Shown here piece by piece: positions 17,198-47,783 of a stretch of 47,783 nt of DNA. The stretch lies in IMG/VR virus record IMGVR_UViG_3300001201_000001, positions 1 to 47,783 of that record. One strand, written 5' to 3'. Positions within the stretch are counted from its first letter, which is position 1. Each line of letters opens with the position of its first letter. The position numbers and the translations under genes were made by a program. The notes under the pieces were generated by a model. That model was not told the origin of the DNA and made no database searches. It was given only the letters and a program-made list of their open reading frames with translations. The stretch is from a virus.

Positions 17198-20100
17198 TTA
17201 CTTTATCTTGACCAGTCGAATATATGACCCTTCAAAAACTTGAAGGTTGTGGCTAGTGCCAGCAAATGCGGAAGCGTTGAAAGTCATCGTGCCGCCGTTT
17301 GAAAACTTGGCGATTCCTTCCCTTATCAATACATTTTTGCCCGGCAACGTGTGGGCGTTTTGTGCGCTAAAAAATTGTGTACTTCCAAAGTCGTCTATTT
17401 GGTGTTGGTACTGGTCAATTTCACCCTGGGCAATTTCGGTCAGCCCGCCCCAAGTGTCATTTGTTGCATCCAGGATCATGCTGAAATTTTCGATACTTGT
17501 GGAACTTACGCTCGATCCAAAGTTGAAGAACAACTCGACTTTGTAGGTTCCCGCATCTATTCCCGTTATGGCCATTCCCGGGATCGCTTGTGGCGTTGTT
17601 CCCGTGACCGTCAAGGATGTCAGGTTGAAGAGTCCGAAGTATTCCTTCGGCTGTCTTACCCATTCCACGTCGCCATCAATATCCACCGTCGCCGTTGAAG
17701 GTTCCGAAGGCCGCTCGCTTGGCCAAACTTCATAAAAGTCAGTAGGGCCGTCATCAAAGAAGAACCGCCATTTTGAAGCCTCCCAGTTCAGTCGCATATC
17801 ATTAAACGAACCATTAACAAAAATTTCATTCCCGCGATAATCGGCGGAAGTGAAGCTGGAGCCATGACCGACAAGAAGGCCTACTTCATCGCTGACTCCG
17901 GCGCTGCTCATATAGTTGCGAAGTTTAAAATAATTGAAGCCCGAGCCATCGTATGAATAAAATCCATTTCGGTATTCACCCGCCGCCGCGTGTCCAATTT
18001 CCAGACGTGTGTCAAATGAAGCGCTTCCCGGGTAACTAAAACCACGAACGTCGGTATTGATGGGGACTGCCACATCCCCCCCGTCTTCGATTCCATTTCC
18101 GTCTGCGGTTGCCGGATCACCTTGAATACCCTGCGGACCGGTCGGGCCTTCAGGACCGGTGGCACCTTGTATTCCTTGCGAACCATCCGCCCCGGTCGGG
18201 CCTTGTGGACCAGCATCACCCTGCGGGCCTTGTGGCCCCGTGGCCCCTTGTGGACCTTGTAATCCTTCATCACCCCGAACACCGCGCAAATGGATCATGC
18301 TGATATTGGTAGACGGGTGTATCGTACCGTTGCCCGATGTTGTACTTATCCGCCTGTTTAGTATTTCGATGTAGTCGTTAGCGGCCAAGGTTTTGACCAT
18401 GAAAAAAGCAACTTGGTTATTATTGGCTCCGGAATTTGCGCGAACGTACCCCCCGCGAAATTGCGCGTCTTCAACATCTGTCCCATTTATGCGGATGCTG
18501 ACATTTGAAGTCAGTCGGTAGTTTGCGGTCGTTCCGGTGTAGTTTATTGATCCCGTGATTGCATAGTTTCCAGGCTCGTCCACATATATCCGGGAGTTGT
18601 CGGTTGTGGTACTATGCGTGAAGGGGGAAGAGGTAACCTCCGAAACGTCAAAATTTATAGGGGTGTCAGATGTTCCGTTTGCGGATTGCCCCCCCGTAGA
18701 CCTTAGTTGAATTATAGGCATCGGAACGACGGCACCCGTTCCATCTATTCCCGCCGGACCTTGCGGACCAGGATCACCCTGCGGACCTTGTGGCCCGTCA
18801 GCACCGGCTGGGCCTTGTGCGCCATCCGCGCCCGCTGGTCCCGTTGGTCCCGTTGCGCCATCCGCTCCGGCCGGGCCTTGTGCGCCAGGATCACCCTGCG
18901 GACCTTGTGCGCCAGGATCACCCTGCGGACCTTGTGGACCAGGATCACCCTGCGGACCTTGTGCGCCATCATTTCCGGCTACACCTTGAGGACCGGCTGG
19001 CCCTGGTGTGGTGGCAATGTTTTCGAGGTCTATTCTTAAGGCTGTGATGCTGTCACGTAGTTCCGTGTCGTCATAAGCCTCCGCCTTCAAAGGTTGCCAC
19101 CCGGAGTTTGTGGTTCCGCCCGTCTCCTTGATGAAAGCGAACTCGTCAGGGTTCGTTGCGTTGATGTTGATGAAGACCGTTCCAGGAGGAGCGCCTACAT
19201 TATTTCGCGGGTCAATAACACCCCACCGGTAATATCTTGTTGCTTCATCAACGTAGAACCGATTGGCCGCGTGGTCGTCAGATGTTGGATTGTCCAAGCC
19301 GATAATCTTCCGCCCGCCTATATTTATATCAATGTCGAAGGTGTCCGAAGTGTATGAAATACCTCCCAAATTATTCCTGAAAACGATATCCCCCGTAAGT
19401 CCGGGTTCGTCGTTGAAGTCAAGCAATCCGCCTCTGACATGAAGGCCTTCTATTCGGGATGATTCTTGCCGGGCATCGTTAAAGTCAATAAATAACTTTG
19501 CCCCCGCGAGACTGGTTCCAACTGTTGATAAGTTCTGCACTTCCGTATTACTTAGGCGGCTTTCATAAACCGCGACCTTCAGCATATTCCGGTCGAACGG
19601 TCTTTGATTTCCCGAATAGATGAAGTTGCCAATAACCGCCTCGTTAATTTGGGTATGTGAAAAGTCCAAGGCGGAAGATGCCCGCGAGACACCATCTATA
19701 TAAATTCGGCCACCAGTTGCATCGAATGATGCGACGACGCGATGAACCCCCGCCCCGGTGTTTGTAGAGTTGAGCGGTGTAGTCATTGCATCACCACCCA
19801 ACGCAAGAACAAACCGGCCGTTGCTTCCTTCATTGAAGTAGAAACTTATTCCGTCAGCTACCCCAAAGTTTGTCGCGCTGTTAAATATCCGGGGGAAGGT
19901 TTGAACCGCCGCGTTACCCGAATACTCCAGTACTATCGTTCCGCCTTGCCCAACATCAAGGTCACGCGGGGCGATGTTGATGTGTTGTGACCCGGAGAAA
20001 GTGTAGCCGGTTTCGTCTTGGTTCCATGCCGATAATGCGTCCTGGCCTTCGATCAAATCCTCAGTGCCATCGTAAGAAATTGGAAGGCCCGCGACGGTTG

Positions 20101-22921
20101 TTTCTATCCCACCGTAAACGTGCGCGGTTGTTGTCGCTACTTCATCTTTGACCGTAATCGTCTCGGCGATGTCGGCAACATAAAGGGGGGCATTGAAAGC
20201 GGGAAGGATATAAATTTTATTATTCACGACGGCCATCGACCCGCCGCGAACAGGTGGAAGGTTGCTACTTACTTGGCGGAATGAATTGTCCACGCTATTC
20301 ACAACGATCCCCTTATCCGCCCGCATAGGGGCAAAATACACCAGGCTCCCAATCTTTGCGGATCCGAGGCAATATTGGTCATTGCTTCCATTTGGTGTGT
20401 GTTCAAGATTATGGGGAACGCTAAAAAATTCTTTTTCGACGGTATCGAACCACACCAGTAAATCCGTATTAAATGGAACGAACCGAATGAACCTCCCGTC
20501 AAGAGTGGCACCATGAAAGTAACCAACGGGCTCAGGACCGGACGCGGCTGCAGGGTGTACGTATTCACCGATGACAGCCCCTGTCTTTACATCAATCTCG
20601 AGGAGTTTCGTTGAAGCCCTTGGATAAAGCCACAAACTTTTTGCGGTATATCCGCCGCCAAGGAAAGAACGAACGCCGAGGCTTATTCCCGATATACCTG
20701 ACAAGTCCGTTGTTCCAATCGTGTCAGCTTCGGTGTCCAGCCATTTCAACTCCGTGGCGTTGTGGGGAATGGCGAACATCTTGTTCTCATTGTTCACCAT
20801 GACCGCACCGTTGAAAGCGTCGTCACCGTAGTCGTTGAAGGTCGGGTATTCGGCAACCAGGGACATCGTATCACCAGGACCACCCGGGTCTATTTTTAGC
20901 AGCGGACCTGACCACGACGGTATCAAATAAAGATATTCGTCATCGTGAACGATGCCGTTGAATTTATCCCGTAATCGTCCGGGCGTTTCAACGTTTTCAT
21001 ATTGAACGTGCAAGGTGTCAAATTCGCGGGTTAGGACATCCATCCGAAAGACAGCGTCGGCATCTTGTGGCGCTCCAAAAATGTACCGCCCTTTTGATGT
21101 CATCCCTAAAAAAGCCTCGCCAGTTACTACTCCGCCAGTCGGTATTTCAATAGGTGAAAAATTAAGATTTTCAAGATTTGCAGCGCGGAATGTAGAACCA
21201 AATCCATCCGATCCAATTTCGTCATATCTCACATATTGATCATCCGGCCCGGTTTCGCCTTGTGGACCTTGTTCGCCTTGTGGACCGTCTTGGCCTATTG
21301 GCCCGGCTGGTCCCGTAGAGCCAGCGGGTCCAGTGTCCCCTTGTGGCCCGGTCGGTCCTGTAGGCCCGGTTGCTCCCGTTGCGCCATCTGTCCCGTCTTG
21401 GCCTGGCGCTCCCGCCAATCCCTGCGGGCCGGTTGATCCTTGCAACCCTTGCGGACCGGTCGGCCCTTCTAAGCTGTCGATAAAATCCTGGACGGTGCCG
21501 GAGTTCCCCGCGTTCAACCATACCTGATACGCACTTTCGCCATCGTTCCCGGCTGGCCCGTCGTTCCCGGCGGGACCAGTCGCTCCAGTATTCCCTTGCA
21601 GACCTTGGCTCCCTTGTGGTCCAACAGGACCAGCATCCCCCTGCGGACCAGCGGGACCAGTCGCGCCCGTATTGCCGGTTGTCCCTTGTGGACCGGCCGG
21701 GCCTACTTCCCCCTGTGGACCAGTTGGACCAGCGGGACCATCTACCCCTTGTATTCCTTGCGGACCAGCATCACCCTGCGGACCAGTCGCGCCAGTCGGT
21801 CCCGTCGCGCCAGTAGCACCGTCGGAGCCTTGCGGACCAGCATCACCCTGCGGCCCCGTCGGTCCAGCTGGTCCCTCCGGACCGGCTTCACCTTGCGGGC
21901 CTTGAATACCTTGTGGCCCGGTTGGACCTTCAGGACCGGTTGGGCCATCATCACCCTGCGGACCTTCCGACCCTCTTATCGGTCCAACGTCTAACCATCC
22001 CGAACCCTGCCAAACGTGTCCGTGGCCATTGTCTTCGGTTATATACATTTCACCAACGGCACCGGAATACGGCAAGGGCAAATCTTGCTGAACAGGAACA
22101 GAGCCAACAATAACAACGCCGGACCCCGGTGGTCCTTGCGGACCAGCCGCACCCGTAAGATTTACGCCAGTTGGCCACCCTCCAGCCTTTGGCCCGTATA
22201 TCCGCGTTGCGTTGGTGTCCATCCAAAAATCACCGTCTTCGCCGTCGGAACTGTTTGGCGGTCGATCACCGGAAAGTATCGTCCGGCCATCATCACCGTC
22301 ATCACCGTCAACACCAGGGTTACCCTGCGGACCAGCTTCGCGCTGAATCCATTGGCCGTCATCCCGGAACAATATCCCGGTGCTTCCGTAAAGCACAACG
22401 TCACCCTCGCGGGGCGATTCGATGTTTATCGTGTCTCCTTGACTTGGAATGGCGTAGACAGTTCCCCCGCCCCTATTTGCCATTATGACGGCATTGTGTC
22501 CGAGAATCATTCCCTGTAGTTCGGCGGTTATCAATCCGTTTGCCTCCGGAACTACGGGGATGAAGTTGTTGGGTAAAGGTTCCCAAACTTGCCCTCGTCC
22601 TGACGGCTTAGATGCGAACCCGTTACCGCTATAACGAAGGGTAACAGGAACCCGCGACGAGTTCCCCGAACCAGCAACCGTCACGACGAACATCCGTCCT
22701 CCGGCATCAATAAACCGGTCACCTACTTCAACGTTGGAAGCCCGCCAGCTTTGATAGTATACGTCCTTCCATTCCTTCAACGTGCCGGTATATGTACCGC
22801 CTCCATTATCATCAAAGCCGCTGGCAACCGCGACCGCGACGTTAGAAACCCCGAGGGTGTCTTGACCAAATGCGCAAATAGTAGCCAGCACAAAGGCCAG
22901 CAAAAAGGTAAATCGTTTCAT
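17198..22921 (-). CDS. giant collagen-repeat fibre protein (1,907 aa) with a Sec-type N-terminal signal sequence, LamG-like and C1q-like regions
   Basis: [20 protein letters not shown] at the N-terminus. There are four long Gly-X-Y blocks. A Concanavalin/LamG-like segment spans roughly aa 990-1130. The fibre motif [20 protein letters not shown] is present. It is the last gene of the tail module. Confidence 0.8.
18113..18283 (-). repeat. collagen-like Gly-X-Y block D (aa 1547-1603)
   Basis: [16 protein letters not shown]...GIQGDP. Confidence 0.9.
18734..19003 (-). repeat. collagen-like Gly-X-Y block C (aa 1307-1396)
   Basis: [22 protein letters not shown]...GIDGTG, with internal GPQGDPGAQ repeats. 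Confidence 0.9.
21239..21466 (-). repeat. collagen-like Gly-X-Y block B (aa 486-561)
   Basis: [13 protein letters not shown]...GETGPD; separated from block A by the linker [24 protein letters not shown]. Confidence 0.9.
21533..21973 (-). repeat. collagen-like Gly-X-Y block A (aa 317-463)
   Basis: Uninterrupted GXY triplets, [19 protein letters not shown]...GNDGES. Confidence 0.9.
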
Positions 22922-43639: not shown

Positions 43640-43869
43640 CGGGAAGGGAAGAACTTGACGATGATGGTGATGACGTGGCTAATGTCAGACAACAACCGGC
43701 CAATGTTTCGGACCAGCGGGCGCGGGTAAGCATCGCGGAACGACCGCCGCCATTTGCGCGTTGTCCTCCGGTCGAGCGTTTCCCAATCGGGTCCGGTAGG
43801 ACGCTCCCTTTTGTAGTATTCTTGCCAGTTCTTCGGTGGCTCGAGGTCTTTACTTTGTCGATCTTCCAT
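43636..43869 (-). CDS. hypothetical protein with a hydrophobic C-terminus
   Basis: Start set at ATG 43869 because the ORF-track start 43899 lies inside the terminator stem. 77 aa. Confidence 0.6.
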   Translation of the reverse strand: MEDRQSKDLEPPKNWQEYYKRERPTGPDWETLDRRTTRKWRRSFRDAYPRPLVRNIGRLLSDISHVITIIVKFFPSR

Positions 43870-43871
43870 GC

Positions 43872-43909
43872 CCAAAGATAAAGAAGCCGCGCCAGTCACC
43901 CGGCGCGGC
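43872..43909 (-). terminator. rho-independent terminator closing the RNA locus
   Basis: 8-bp stem GCCGCGCC/GGCGCGGC (43886-43893/43902-43909), followed by TTCTTTATCTTT on the coding strand. Confidence 0.75.
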
Positions 43910-44330
43910 CCAAATCATAATCCCTATAAACATATACGGGAAGGGCTTAAGATGGCCAGCCGATGCGACTCGACTGACCGGATTAACACCTAAAAACCCA
44001 AATTCTTGAAGTGGCGGGGGAGTACACCCTACTCAACCCCGCAGAATCTACTTCAAAGTTTGCGGGTGCAACCGCGATGCCTTCAACGTTTCCCCGGAGG
44101 GGGCGTGTAGTTCCCGTCCGGTTGGTTTTGATAATGCTGGCGACTGGATTGGTCGCCTTCGTTGAAGGCCATGAGCGCAAGGTAGGAATCGAACCTACAC
44201 CGATAAAGCCGGAACCGCCTTGATCGTGGTGAGACATTAACACCAGGCGAACTCTACCGCAAACCCCCGAACGGGATGACTCGCGCAAGATACCGGGACG
44301 AACCCGGCACAAACAAACAATCATAATCTC
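43910..44330 (-). ncRNA. ORF-free, GC-hairpin-rich structured RNA locus (class unknown)
   Basis: About 420 nt between an AT-rich promoter-like region and a terminator. It has a long-range 10-bp helix (44160-44169 with 44079-44088) and an 11-bp bulged hairpin (44014-44042). Further hairpins are GGCGAC/GTCGCC and CCGGA/TCCGG. The only ORF (113 aa) has a junk-like composition. Confidence 0.55.
44174..44286 (-). ncRNA. tRNA-like element (113 nt); not a canonical tRNA
   Basis: Perfect T-arm GTAGG-TTCGATT-CCTAC (44182-44198). The 7-bp acceptor pairing is GCGCGAG (44280-44286) with CTTGCGC (44175-44181), and U8 is present. The span is about 37 nt too long, with a 9-nt anticodon-like loop and no canonical D-loop. 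Confidence 0.45.
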
Positions 44331-44375
44331 ATGAAAAAAAGACGACCTAAAAAATAATCTTTGATGTCATGGGAC

Positions 44376-44390
44376 TTTGATGGGATCAAA
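44376..44390. promoter_or_regulatory. inverted repeat TTTGAT-GGG-ATCAAA (operator-like) upstream of the RNA locus
   Basis: Further TTTGAT/ATCAAA half-sites at 44360-44365 and 44411-44416. Confidence 0.3.
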
Positions 44391-44493
44391 TAAATCTATC
44401 TCTGTGTAAGATCAAACCCCGGCGTTCCGGGTATTTGCTTTCGTTTGACTTCGTGAAGATAGGGGGAATTTTAACGGGTGCCAAATCCGTCAG

Positions 44494-44835
44494 CTACATC
44501 GCGTCAACGATGGGGACCGGCGTATCATTCCACACCAGGCAAACGCCCCCCATCCGAAGGTGTTCGGCGTAAAGATTGCGGACCTTTTTCATGGTCAAAT
44601 CCATGTCGGGGTATTGCGCTTTGTCGTTGGCTAGGATGCGGTCCCAGTCCTTGATGTCCTTCGGGATAATCCACTCGCCTATCGGTTCGCCTTCAAATTC
44701 CCGGTACATCCCGGACCCCGCCCGCTTGCCACACTTCGGGCAAGTGATGAACATGGGGGAGGTTCCTTCGTCTCGGTGTTCGGTCGGTAGCTTGTGGCCA
44801 TCGACGCAGGTGTATTGGTTTCTAAGTAGTGCCAT
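44494..44835 (-). CDS. hypothetical protein (possible zinc ribbon)
   Basis: 113 aa; CVDGH and CPKC pairs. Confidence 0.65.
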   Translation of the reverse strand: MALLRNQYTCVDGHKLPTEHRDEGTSPMFITCPKCGKRAGSGMYREFEGEPIGEWIIPKDIKDWDRILANDKAQYPDMDLTMKKVRNLYAEHLRMGGVCLVWNDTPVPIVDAM

Positions 44836-47649: not shown

Positions 47650-47783
47650 ATATCCAAGCGGGTTTGCGTGGCCTTCACTTTCTTGGCGTGTCGGTCGATG
47701 ATGGCCTGGTATTCTTTGTCCGTCATTTCGGTCAGGATGTCGCGGGCCATTTCGAGTCGGGTAAATTGATTGTTGGCGTGGTG
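47646..47783 (-). CDS. hypothetical protein; C-terminal part of the ORF that crosses the window ends (47735..47783 duplicates 1..49)
   Basis: The sequence LTEMTDKEYQAIIDRHAKKVKATQTRLDI-stop follows in frame from position 1. TGA 47646-47648 overlaps ATG 47649-47647 of the next gene. Confidence 0.6.
   Translation of the reverse strand, partial: HHANNQFTRLEMARDILTEMTDKEYQAIIDRHAKKVKATQTRLDI
47735..47783. repeat. 49-bp terminal direct repeat, identical to 1..49
   Basis: See the first feature. Confidence 0.95.

Follow-up and report, generated by a model that had tools for sequence, protein, structure and literature searches.

Structured RNAs linked to phage tRNAs, and RNAs that mimic tRNAs, are already known in kind. 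The tRNA cluster of phage T4 gives rise to two stable RNAs (species 1 and 2, rnaC and rnaD) that are co-transcribed with the tRNAs and released by tRNA-processing nucleases and have no assigned function, and E. coli encodes 3'ETS-leuZ, a tRNA-trailer RNA that ends at the operon terminator and is a known sponge of small RNAs. YrlA and the other bacterial Y RNAs are defined by a Ro-binding motif (GNCGAAN0-1G), a tRNA-like domain and a Ro60 (TROVE) gene as neighbor, and some of them are borne by phages (PMC4201824). GOLLD and ROOL are phage-associated, highly structured RNAs of ~580-800 nucleotides (nt) that often lie beside tRNAs (PMC12286853). Here we describe a further locus, on the minus strand at 44347-43874 of a 47,783-nt stretch of viral DNA (the window; positions 1 to 47,783 of IMG/VR record IMGVR_UViG_3300001201_000001), which is non-coding, strongly structured and closed by a predicted intrinsic terminator just ahead of the next ATG. 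It lies at the boundary between the early and middle genes and those for lysis, packaging and structure.

Five parts follow one another in this locus: the leader and its hairpin, the tRNA slot, a middle part that varies, a 3' domain of ~165 nt and an intrinsic terminator. A relative of the phage, on the contig L003, carries the same locus with a real tRNA in the slot where the window has a module of tRNA-like geometry. The locus is conserved, its helices covary, and it falls outside the known RNA families. We tentatively read it, at a little less than an even chance of being right, as a non-coding transcription unit that a small clade of uncultured tailed phages has conserved, with the tRNA or tRNA-like module acting as the handle by which RNase P and RNase Z process a new structured RNA. 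The features of the locus and its upstream neighbor are as follows.

44494-44835, minus strand: upstream gene, encoding a CxxC...Zn-ribbon protein of 113 amino acids (aa)
44456..44484, minus strand: promoter-like site of the sigma-70 type, TTGGCA-17-TATCTT, from a consensus scan only; candidate promoter of the unit
44313..44347, minus strand: conserved leader GGTCGTCTTTTTTTCATGAGATTATGATTGTTTGT, which matches L003:1-35 save for a 1-nt T indel
44328-44319, minus strand: copy 1 of GATTATGATT, inside the leader
44292..44308, minus strand: hairpin 1, GCCGGG-TTCGT-CCCGGT, with a weak U tail, from the minimum-free-energy fold
44174..44286, minus strand: tRNA-like module, 113 nt, from acceptor/T-arm geometry and fold
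44079..44169, minus strand: middle domain, a 10-bp closing helix (44169-44160 / 44088-44079) around two hairpins, from the fold; only in this phage
43912..44075, minus strand: conserved 3' domain, ~165 nt, from covariance model, pair conservation and fold
43874..43911, minus strand: intrinsic terminator T2, with a 12-bp GC-rich stem (43911-43884) and a U-rich tail (43885-43874), UUCUUUAUCUUU

Compared with shuffled sequences, the folding z-score is -4.4 for the whole locus, -4.8 for the middle domain, -3.8 for the 3' domain and -2.1 for the tRNA-like module alone. A preliminary description of this DNA had listed most of these elements, and inspection of sequence and folds places all that it listed at its minus-strand coordinates, among them an 11-bp bulged hairpin at 44042-44014. 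It had put a strong terminator 2 nt from the next ATG. The terminator is there, predicted from a GC-rich hairpin and U-tract with which the unit ends on the coding strand, but its tail stops 4 nt before the ATG of the next open reading frame (ORF) at 43869. The 10-bp long-range helix and the tRNA-like module that it reported are likewise present, though neither is conserved: L003 lacks the helix and has a tRNA-Met in place of the module.

The same description had called 43870-44493 the largest non-coding interval of the genome, which is correct provided that a 113-aa ORF at 43983-44324 is discounted. By codon usage this ORF scores -0.076 per codon, less than any of the 44 phage genes (mean 0.28, standard deviation 0.10, minimum 0.035), and in L003 the ATG homologous to its start gives MIVCA and then a stop, after 5 codons. 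Because its score lies under those of all 44 genes and its frame is broken in L003, we reject the ORF as a protein-coding gene and take the locus to be non-coding, as first proposed. Within the ORF's span, the invariant block 43999-43985 / L003:337-351 holds a tiny frame, start-GGU-UUU-UAG (UUG in the window, AUG in L003; M/L-G-F-stop), which is probably coincidental.

Set beside the RNAs named above, the locus resembles species 1 and 2 of T4 as a phage RNA that lies alongside tRNAs, processing being presumed here. It differs from them in sequence, with no similarity by blastn against 50,697 phage records, and in having a single initiator-type tRNA or degenerate mimic attached to an RNA of ~290 nt with its own terminator. 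The likeness to 3'ETS-leuZ, drawn by description only, lies in an RNA from the trailer of a tRNA transcript with a terminator end; 3'ETS-leuZ, however, is host-encoded and shorter. GOLLD and ROOL differ in size, as the conserved core here is only ~165 nt, and their Rfam models gave no match.

The tRNA slot and its two occupants

In the window, the ends of the module (44286-44174) pair as a 7-bp acceptor stem, GCGCGAG (44286-44280) with CTTGCGC (44181-44175), that includes one G-U pair. The T-arm, GTAGG-TTCGATT-CCTAC at 44198-44182, agrees with the G53-C61 pair and the UUCRA consensus, and as in a canonical tRNA the 7-bp acceptor is directly stacked on a T-stem of 5 bp whose loop fits UUCRANN (44286-44280 / 44198-44175). 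Position 8 is T (44279), the discriminator at 44174 is U (T in the DNA), no CCA is encoded and the 3:70 pair is G-C. All of this accords with the preliminary description, which had reported the T-arm, the acceptor and U8 and had noted the lack of G3-U70 and CCA. The extra 5-bp hairpin that it saw is also real and occupies the D-arm position (44277-44263). Its arm with a 9-nt loop stands too (44245-44227), but its separate arm in the place of the variable loop does not: the minimum-free-energy fold merges the two into one long irregular arm (44258-44201) capped by the 9-nt loop, and this arm joins the acceptor, the 5-bp hairpin and the T-arm in a four-way, cloverleaf-like junction. We scanned for a 5-bp T-stem with the loop TTCRANN, immediately followed by a 7-nt strand able to pair with a segment 40-125 nt upstream. 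The pattern has a single site in the 47.8-kb genome, this one, and none in 300 first-order Markov random genomes (both strands), and we therefore conclude that the tRNA resemblance of the module is not due to chance.

No standard cloverleaf fits the module, as had been said at the outset. ARAGORN finds zero genes in the window by default (tRNA and tmRNA), none with introns allowed, only junk calls with thresholds relaxed to 80%, nothing in tmRNA mode (80% threshold) and no tRNA in mitochondrial mode. The Rfam 15 covariance models, GOLLD and ROOL included, give no gathering-level match over the whole window, in line with the earlier view that the RNA belongs to no known family. The best score for the tRNA clan (CL00001) in the window is 15.5 bits, for tRNA-Sec, against a gathering cutoff of 47, and when the module is searched by itself the match is confined to the 17-nt T-arm, on which the tmRNA models reach 8.5 bits. 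The best sub-threshold Rfam match in the window is GcvB (21.1 bits against 42, E = 0.029); it does not recur in L003, and we treat it as chance. A canonical tRNA (RF00005 / CL00001) is rejected on these ARAGORN and Rfam results. The module has neither a 7-nt anticodon loop nor conventional D-loop G18-G19 spacing, and it measures 113 nt from end to end, against 70-95 nt for a canonical tRNA.

These data also bear on whether the module could be a functional non-canonical tRNA, either with its 9-nt anticodon loop suited to frameshift or quadruplet decoding or of a class II or Sec-like type. Such a tRNA would account for the perfect acceptor and T-arm and for the rank of tRNA-Sec as best match within the clan; the G1-C72, C2-G71 and G3-C70 pairs and U73 could be added, which we take to resemble the bacterial glycine acceptor identity set. 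It is nonetheless very unlikely given the shortfall in the Rfam score, the ARAGORN results even with introns or 80% thresholds, the missing anticodon and D-loop features and the end-to-end length.

The module shares with the tRNA-like domain of tmRNA an acceptor, a T-arm and a long irregular helix that replaces the anticodon arm. Unlike tmRNA, it is only 113 nt long and has no G3-U70 pair, tag ORF or pseudoknots, and tmRNA is rejected on the G-C pair at 3:70, the negative ARAGORN tmRNA mode and Rfam models that find nothing beyond the T-arm. With YrlA and other bacterial Y RNAs it has in common a tRNA-like module with a consensus T-arm and a 7-bp acceptor-type stem, which can make an RNA a substrate for RNase P and CCA addition. 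The topology is the opposite, however, as here the module's own 5' and 3' ends form the acceptor and the loop caps the long arm. Moreover, the motif GNCGAAN0-1G is absent from 44360-43870, no TROVE/Ro60 protein occurs among 40 window proteins scanned against Pfam, and Rfam gives no YrlA match even at E <= 10. That the module is a ribonucleoprotein scaffold of the YrlA or tmRNA kind, as its tRNA mimicry and the existence of phage-borne YrlA RNAs (PMC4201824) might suggest, is thus largely refuted, and so is the notion of an attP site or a remnant of tRNA integration. Against a host-tRNA attP core stand three results: exact matches to the 24-nt and 21-nt 3' ends are absent from IMG/VR and from 185,579 species genomes, the window proteins scanned yielded no integrase domain, and the module has both acceptor strands, which an attP core does not. 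We give this group of explanations scarcely any weight.

The counterpart in L003 was reached by way of the terminase. TerL was chosen as the search anchor because the upstream 113-aa Zn-ribbon protein (44494-44835) has homologs only within the same phage, and the two nearest relatives of the window's TerL (64-65% identity) are both on short Logan contigs. The L003 terminase is 64% identical to that of the window, and protein identity between the two phages is 37-74%. With the window locus as query, nhmmer aligns L003:1-445 (E = 4e-17). The 35-nt leader reads GGTCGTCTTTTTTT(T)CATGAGATTATGATTGTTTGT in L003, a 1-nt indel being the sole difference from the window. At the position of hairpin 1, L003:35-61 is a strong intrinsic terminator of different sequence (12-bp stem and T8). 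The slot of the window's aberrant module is occupied by L003:101-173, a canonical tRNA-Met(CAT) by ARAGORN (Rfam tRNA 63.5 bits), which resembles phage tRNA-Met genes in the blastn search of phage records. It combines a mismatch at 1:72 and A11:U24 with an anticodon stem that has three G-C pairs at its base, presumably the hallmarks of an initiator by established identity rules. The middle domain aligns poorly, both strands of the 10-bp helix being absent from L003, and the terminator at L003:425-454 holds the same relative position as in the window. The preliminary description had proposed conservation in relatives as a check, and both the leader and the 3' domain are conserved in L003. The protein genes flanking the locus are unrelated between the two phages, whereas the downstream structural genes are syntenic from the terminase onward, which indicates that selection acts on the RNA locus itself.

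We know of no description of an initiator-type tRNA swapped for an acceptor/T-arm-only mimic within a conserved RNA unit. One could go further and see in the window an initiator-tRNA gene turned into a non-decoding mimic coupled to an effector RNA domain, and hence a new class of phage tRNA-mimic RNA, which might act as a decoy, luring host defence nucleases that target tRNAs or else initiation factors, or as a scaffold bringing tRNA-binding enzymes to the 3' domain. We regard this extension as improbable.

The conserved 3' domain and the extent of the family

The 3' domain consists, in order, of the invariant hairpin GCGGUUGCACCCGC, a nested hairpin (44057-44005), the invariant blocks ACUUCAAGA and UGGGUUUUUAGGUGUU, a long hairpin with bulges (43999-43943), a small hairpin whose loop is UGUU, and AUUAUGAUU, itself part of copy 2 of GATTATGATT (43922-43913). 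The blocks that do not vary between the window and L003 are GCGGUUGCACCCGC, ACUUCAAGA, UGGGUUUUUAGGUGUU, UAUGUUUA and AUUAUG. A covariance model built from the window's 3' domain as a single sequence (R1) scores 57.5 bits on L003:260-426 (E ~5e-12 in 2 Mb). MAFFT alignments misplaced the hairpins and were replaced by a structure-guided alignment made by hand, with gaps fixed by N padding. In this alignment of two sequences, standard pairs form at 41/41 positions in the window and 40/41 in L003 (98.8% of cells). Five pairs show compensatory double changes, of which the nested hairpin holds three and the long and UGUU hairpins one each, and another five switch between wobble and Watson-Crick pairing. 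Controls in which the partners were slid by 1-3 columns gave 41-55% pairing and 0 compensatory changes, and a model-fitted alignment of four rows pointed in the same direction as the hand alignment. Stems that vary with compensation around invariant loops and junctions are a pattern typical of functional RNAs, and the support for the predicted structure of the 3' domain appears good but not conclusive.

One element of the locus, UUUAGGUG, has two possible, mutually exclusive pairings, one upstream, with CACUUCAAGA, and the other downstream, with CAUCUUAA or ACCUAAA. Sites complementary to UGGGUUUUUAGGUGUU do not occur above chance in the phage genome. The sequence GATTATGATT occurs exactly twice in the genome, at 44328-44319 and 43922-43913, both times on the coding strand and 10-20 nt upstream of a GC-rich hairpin, and the copies jointly flank the unit of tRNA-like module and RNA. 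In L003 the first copy is exact and the second reads AATTATGCC. Its role might be that of a motif near terminators, of a seed or of a protein site.

A possible third member lies on L084/L085, whose TerL is 55% identical to the window's, in the intergenic gap upstream of TerS. It has a U-rich GG...GG block, a bulged hairpin with stems that covary with the other two sequences, a GGGUUUAUGA block and a terminator, with no tRNA. The terminator (L084:4872-4891) has the same relative position as in the window and is followed by a TTGACA-17-TATCTT site. Membership of L084/L085 in the family is unproven. When the covariance models R1 and R2 were run over ~2.1 Mb of loci anchored on terminase (from JGI metagenomes, IMG/VR and Logan), L003 and the borderline L084/L085 alone came up; no further members emerged from four scans of IMG/VR for DNA patterns, and in the blastn comparison with the 50,697 phage records nothing matched outside the L003 tRNA. 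The 3' domain matches no Rfam family, and the RNA was not found in phage records or in the IMG/VR or GTDB scans. A degenerate two-block pattern run on GTDB genomes gave 19 matches, rejected as coding sequence or host intergenic repeats, none of which scores with the covariance models. Among the chance matches to the search pattern was L098:2100-2350, from a metagenome-assembled genome of Saprospiraceae, a chromosomal intergenic region dense in GGGTTTATG / TTTTTTGGGG repeats and in hairpins. It is oriented opposite to its genes and may represent a family of intergenic repeats specific to that lineage. Separately, two more non-identical Logan proteins, P0123 (on a 45,494-nt contig) and P0124, cluster with the window's TerL at 90% identity, and the phages that encode them, as close relatives, are expected to carry informative variants of the RNA locus.

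Could the locus instead be evolutionary debris, a decaying tRNA gene and spacer caught between two terminators, whose RNA has no function? The module is unusable as a tRNA, the middle domain is not conserved and the family is tiny, as debris would have it. Random decay, however, would break helices, and those of the module are all intact, with a T-loop that is still consensus. Nor would decay leave a leader identical to that of L003 but for the 1-nt indel, or 40 of 41 pairs of the 3' domain kept with compensation while neighboring genes were replaced. We therefore hold this explanation to be unlikely.

Possible roles: a processing handle or a late-operon leader

If the module is a processing handle, the unit would be made as a single precursor transcript, and the tRNA or tRNA-like module would be cleaved at its 5' end by RNase P and at its 3' end by RNase Z or RNase E. 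The cleavage would free a terminator-ended, structured RNA of ~290 nt, whose single-stranded conserved blocks ACUUCAAGA, UGGGUUUUUAGGUGUU and AUUAUG may bind a protein or RNA partner in trans, and polymerases that pass the terminator would carry on into the late genes. In short, we infer co-transcription, processing and action in trans. The window's module seems to have kept the acceptor/T-arm minihelix on a four-way junction, which is the part recognized by RNase P, RNase Z and the enzyme that adds CCA, and to have lost the features needed for decoding. A 7-bp acceptor stem is a major determinant for RNase P, and a tRNA-like Y RNA that bears one is cut by RNase P and receives CCA (PMC4201824).

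The position of the locus also allows it to be a cis-acting leader of the late operon, the main rival, though a somewhat doubtful one. Transcription would start at a promoter after the last early gene and end at the terminator unless the polymerase is made termination-resistant by a phage protein or by the RNA itself, with the tRNA as cargo. There are precedents in lambda Q acting at PR'-qut-6S RNA-tR', in the put RNA of HK022, a structured RNA that acts on polymerase, and in the tRNA genes of Stx phages downstream of PR'. As in lambda PR'-6S-tR', the Stx-phage tRNA genes and HK022 put, a terminated transcript would lie just upstream of lysis and packaging genes, and such a leader can hold tRNAs. 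Unlike in those phages, no Q-like protein was recognized here and there is no sequence relation, the context alone being compatible. The genes are co-oriented, and the locus lies directly upstream of the endolysin-like, methylase, TerS, TerL and portal genes. Several hairpins and sites resembling terminators come after the promoter-like site, and the alternative pairings of UUUAGGUG are attenuator-like.

The upstream Zn-ribbon protein weakly resembles RNA-polymerase-associated ribbons; its sole similarities, to RbpA, RPB9 and RPA12, are non-significant, and from its sequence it is a candidate transcription factor for the neighboring RNA locus. On the other side, comparison of this protein with antiterminator families gave no significant match, no Q-family domain was found in the upstream proteins, and the terminator stem itself takes part in no alternative pairing. 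The possible homolog on L084 is followed by its own promoter-like site, which points to a self-contained unit there, and the strong terminator ahead of the L003 tRNA suggests a separate promoter for the tRNA-RNA unit. The processing-handle and cis-leader readings are not mutually exclusive.

Several observations weigh against the processing-handle reading. The full locus is known from only two independent sequences, and the element on L084/L085 scores 16.2 bits with R1 and 13.5 bits with R2, or E ~0.2-1 at the scale of all DNA searched. In the shuffle control for covariation, 11/500 shuffles reach the observed value, which with two sequences and a structure-guided alignment makes for weak statistics. 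Local alignment of the window's module with the L003 tRNA is not significant, 40/500 shuffles being as good. Descent of the module from an L003-type tRNA-Met is for this reason rejected at the level of sequence, and the proposal that the module was remodelled from a tRNA draws on its position only. Finally, the terminator tail lies 4 nt from the next ATG, where no separate promoter fits, and so the cis-acting leader suits the locus at least as well as a free-standing RNA gene.

Phage structured RNAs are poorly charted, and phage tRNA-like elements are mostly filed as odd tRNAs. The two phages offer a natural comparison, in which one RNA unit has a real initiator-type tRNA in one phage and an acceptor/T-arm-only mimic in the other. 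Should the processing-handle reading hold, tRNA geometry would serve bacterial viruses as a signal for the maturation of another RNA, as is known from eukaryotic and herpesviral RNAs, and an RNA family of ~165 nt would be added at the early-to-late switch of infection. Should the cis-acting leader prove right, the locus would be a new RNA-based control point of late transcription in a little-studied phage group.

Genome context and other elements

The window (~47.8 kb) has a 49-nt direct repeat at its ends (1-49 = 47735-47783), and an independent Logan contig, L001, spans the joined ends; on these two grounds, the window is a complete phage genome, circular or circularly permuted. The minus strand holds all gene-sized ORFs, as judged by coding score. 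Along it, small unannotated genes are followed by the RNA locus, two small ORFs, a CHAP/lysozyme-like gene, a DNA methylase, TerS, TerL and the structural genes, and the promoter-like site at 44456..44484 comes directly after the stop codon of the upstream 113-aa gene. The nearest cultured relatives by TerL are Flavobacterium phages, at ~41% identity.

Elsewhere in the genome, a 1907-aa protein (17198-22921, minus strand) has eight collagen triple-helix repeat stretches and a laminin-G/ConA-like domain and is presumably a tail fibre. A module of ~85 nt occurs in two intergenic copies, at 13004-12869 and 11888-11734 on the minus strand. Each copy has a strong terminator and then CCAAAAGTTAAAGTTTACGCACAACCCCCA...AAAAGAA...CTTGC.CGTTACCC, and the module may be a repeated promoter or 5' untranslated region element, or another small RNA.

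The cargo that precedes TerS, counted from the RNA locus (L003) or the start of the contig (L002), differs among relatives. L003:1155-5412 carries SDR, cupin, AdoMet-decarboxylase-like, SET and two PAPS-reductase genes, and L002:317-1782 carries two TAGT genes. The cargo of both resembles DNA-hypermodification modules, and the window has a ParB-less N6/N4 methylase instead.

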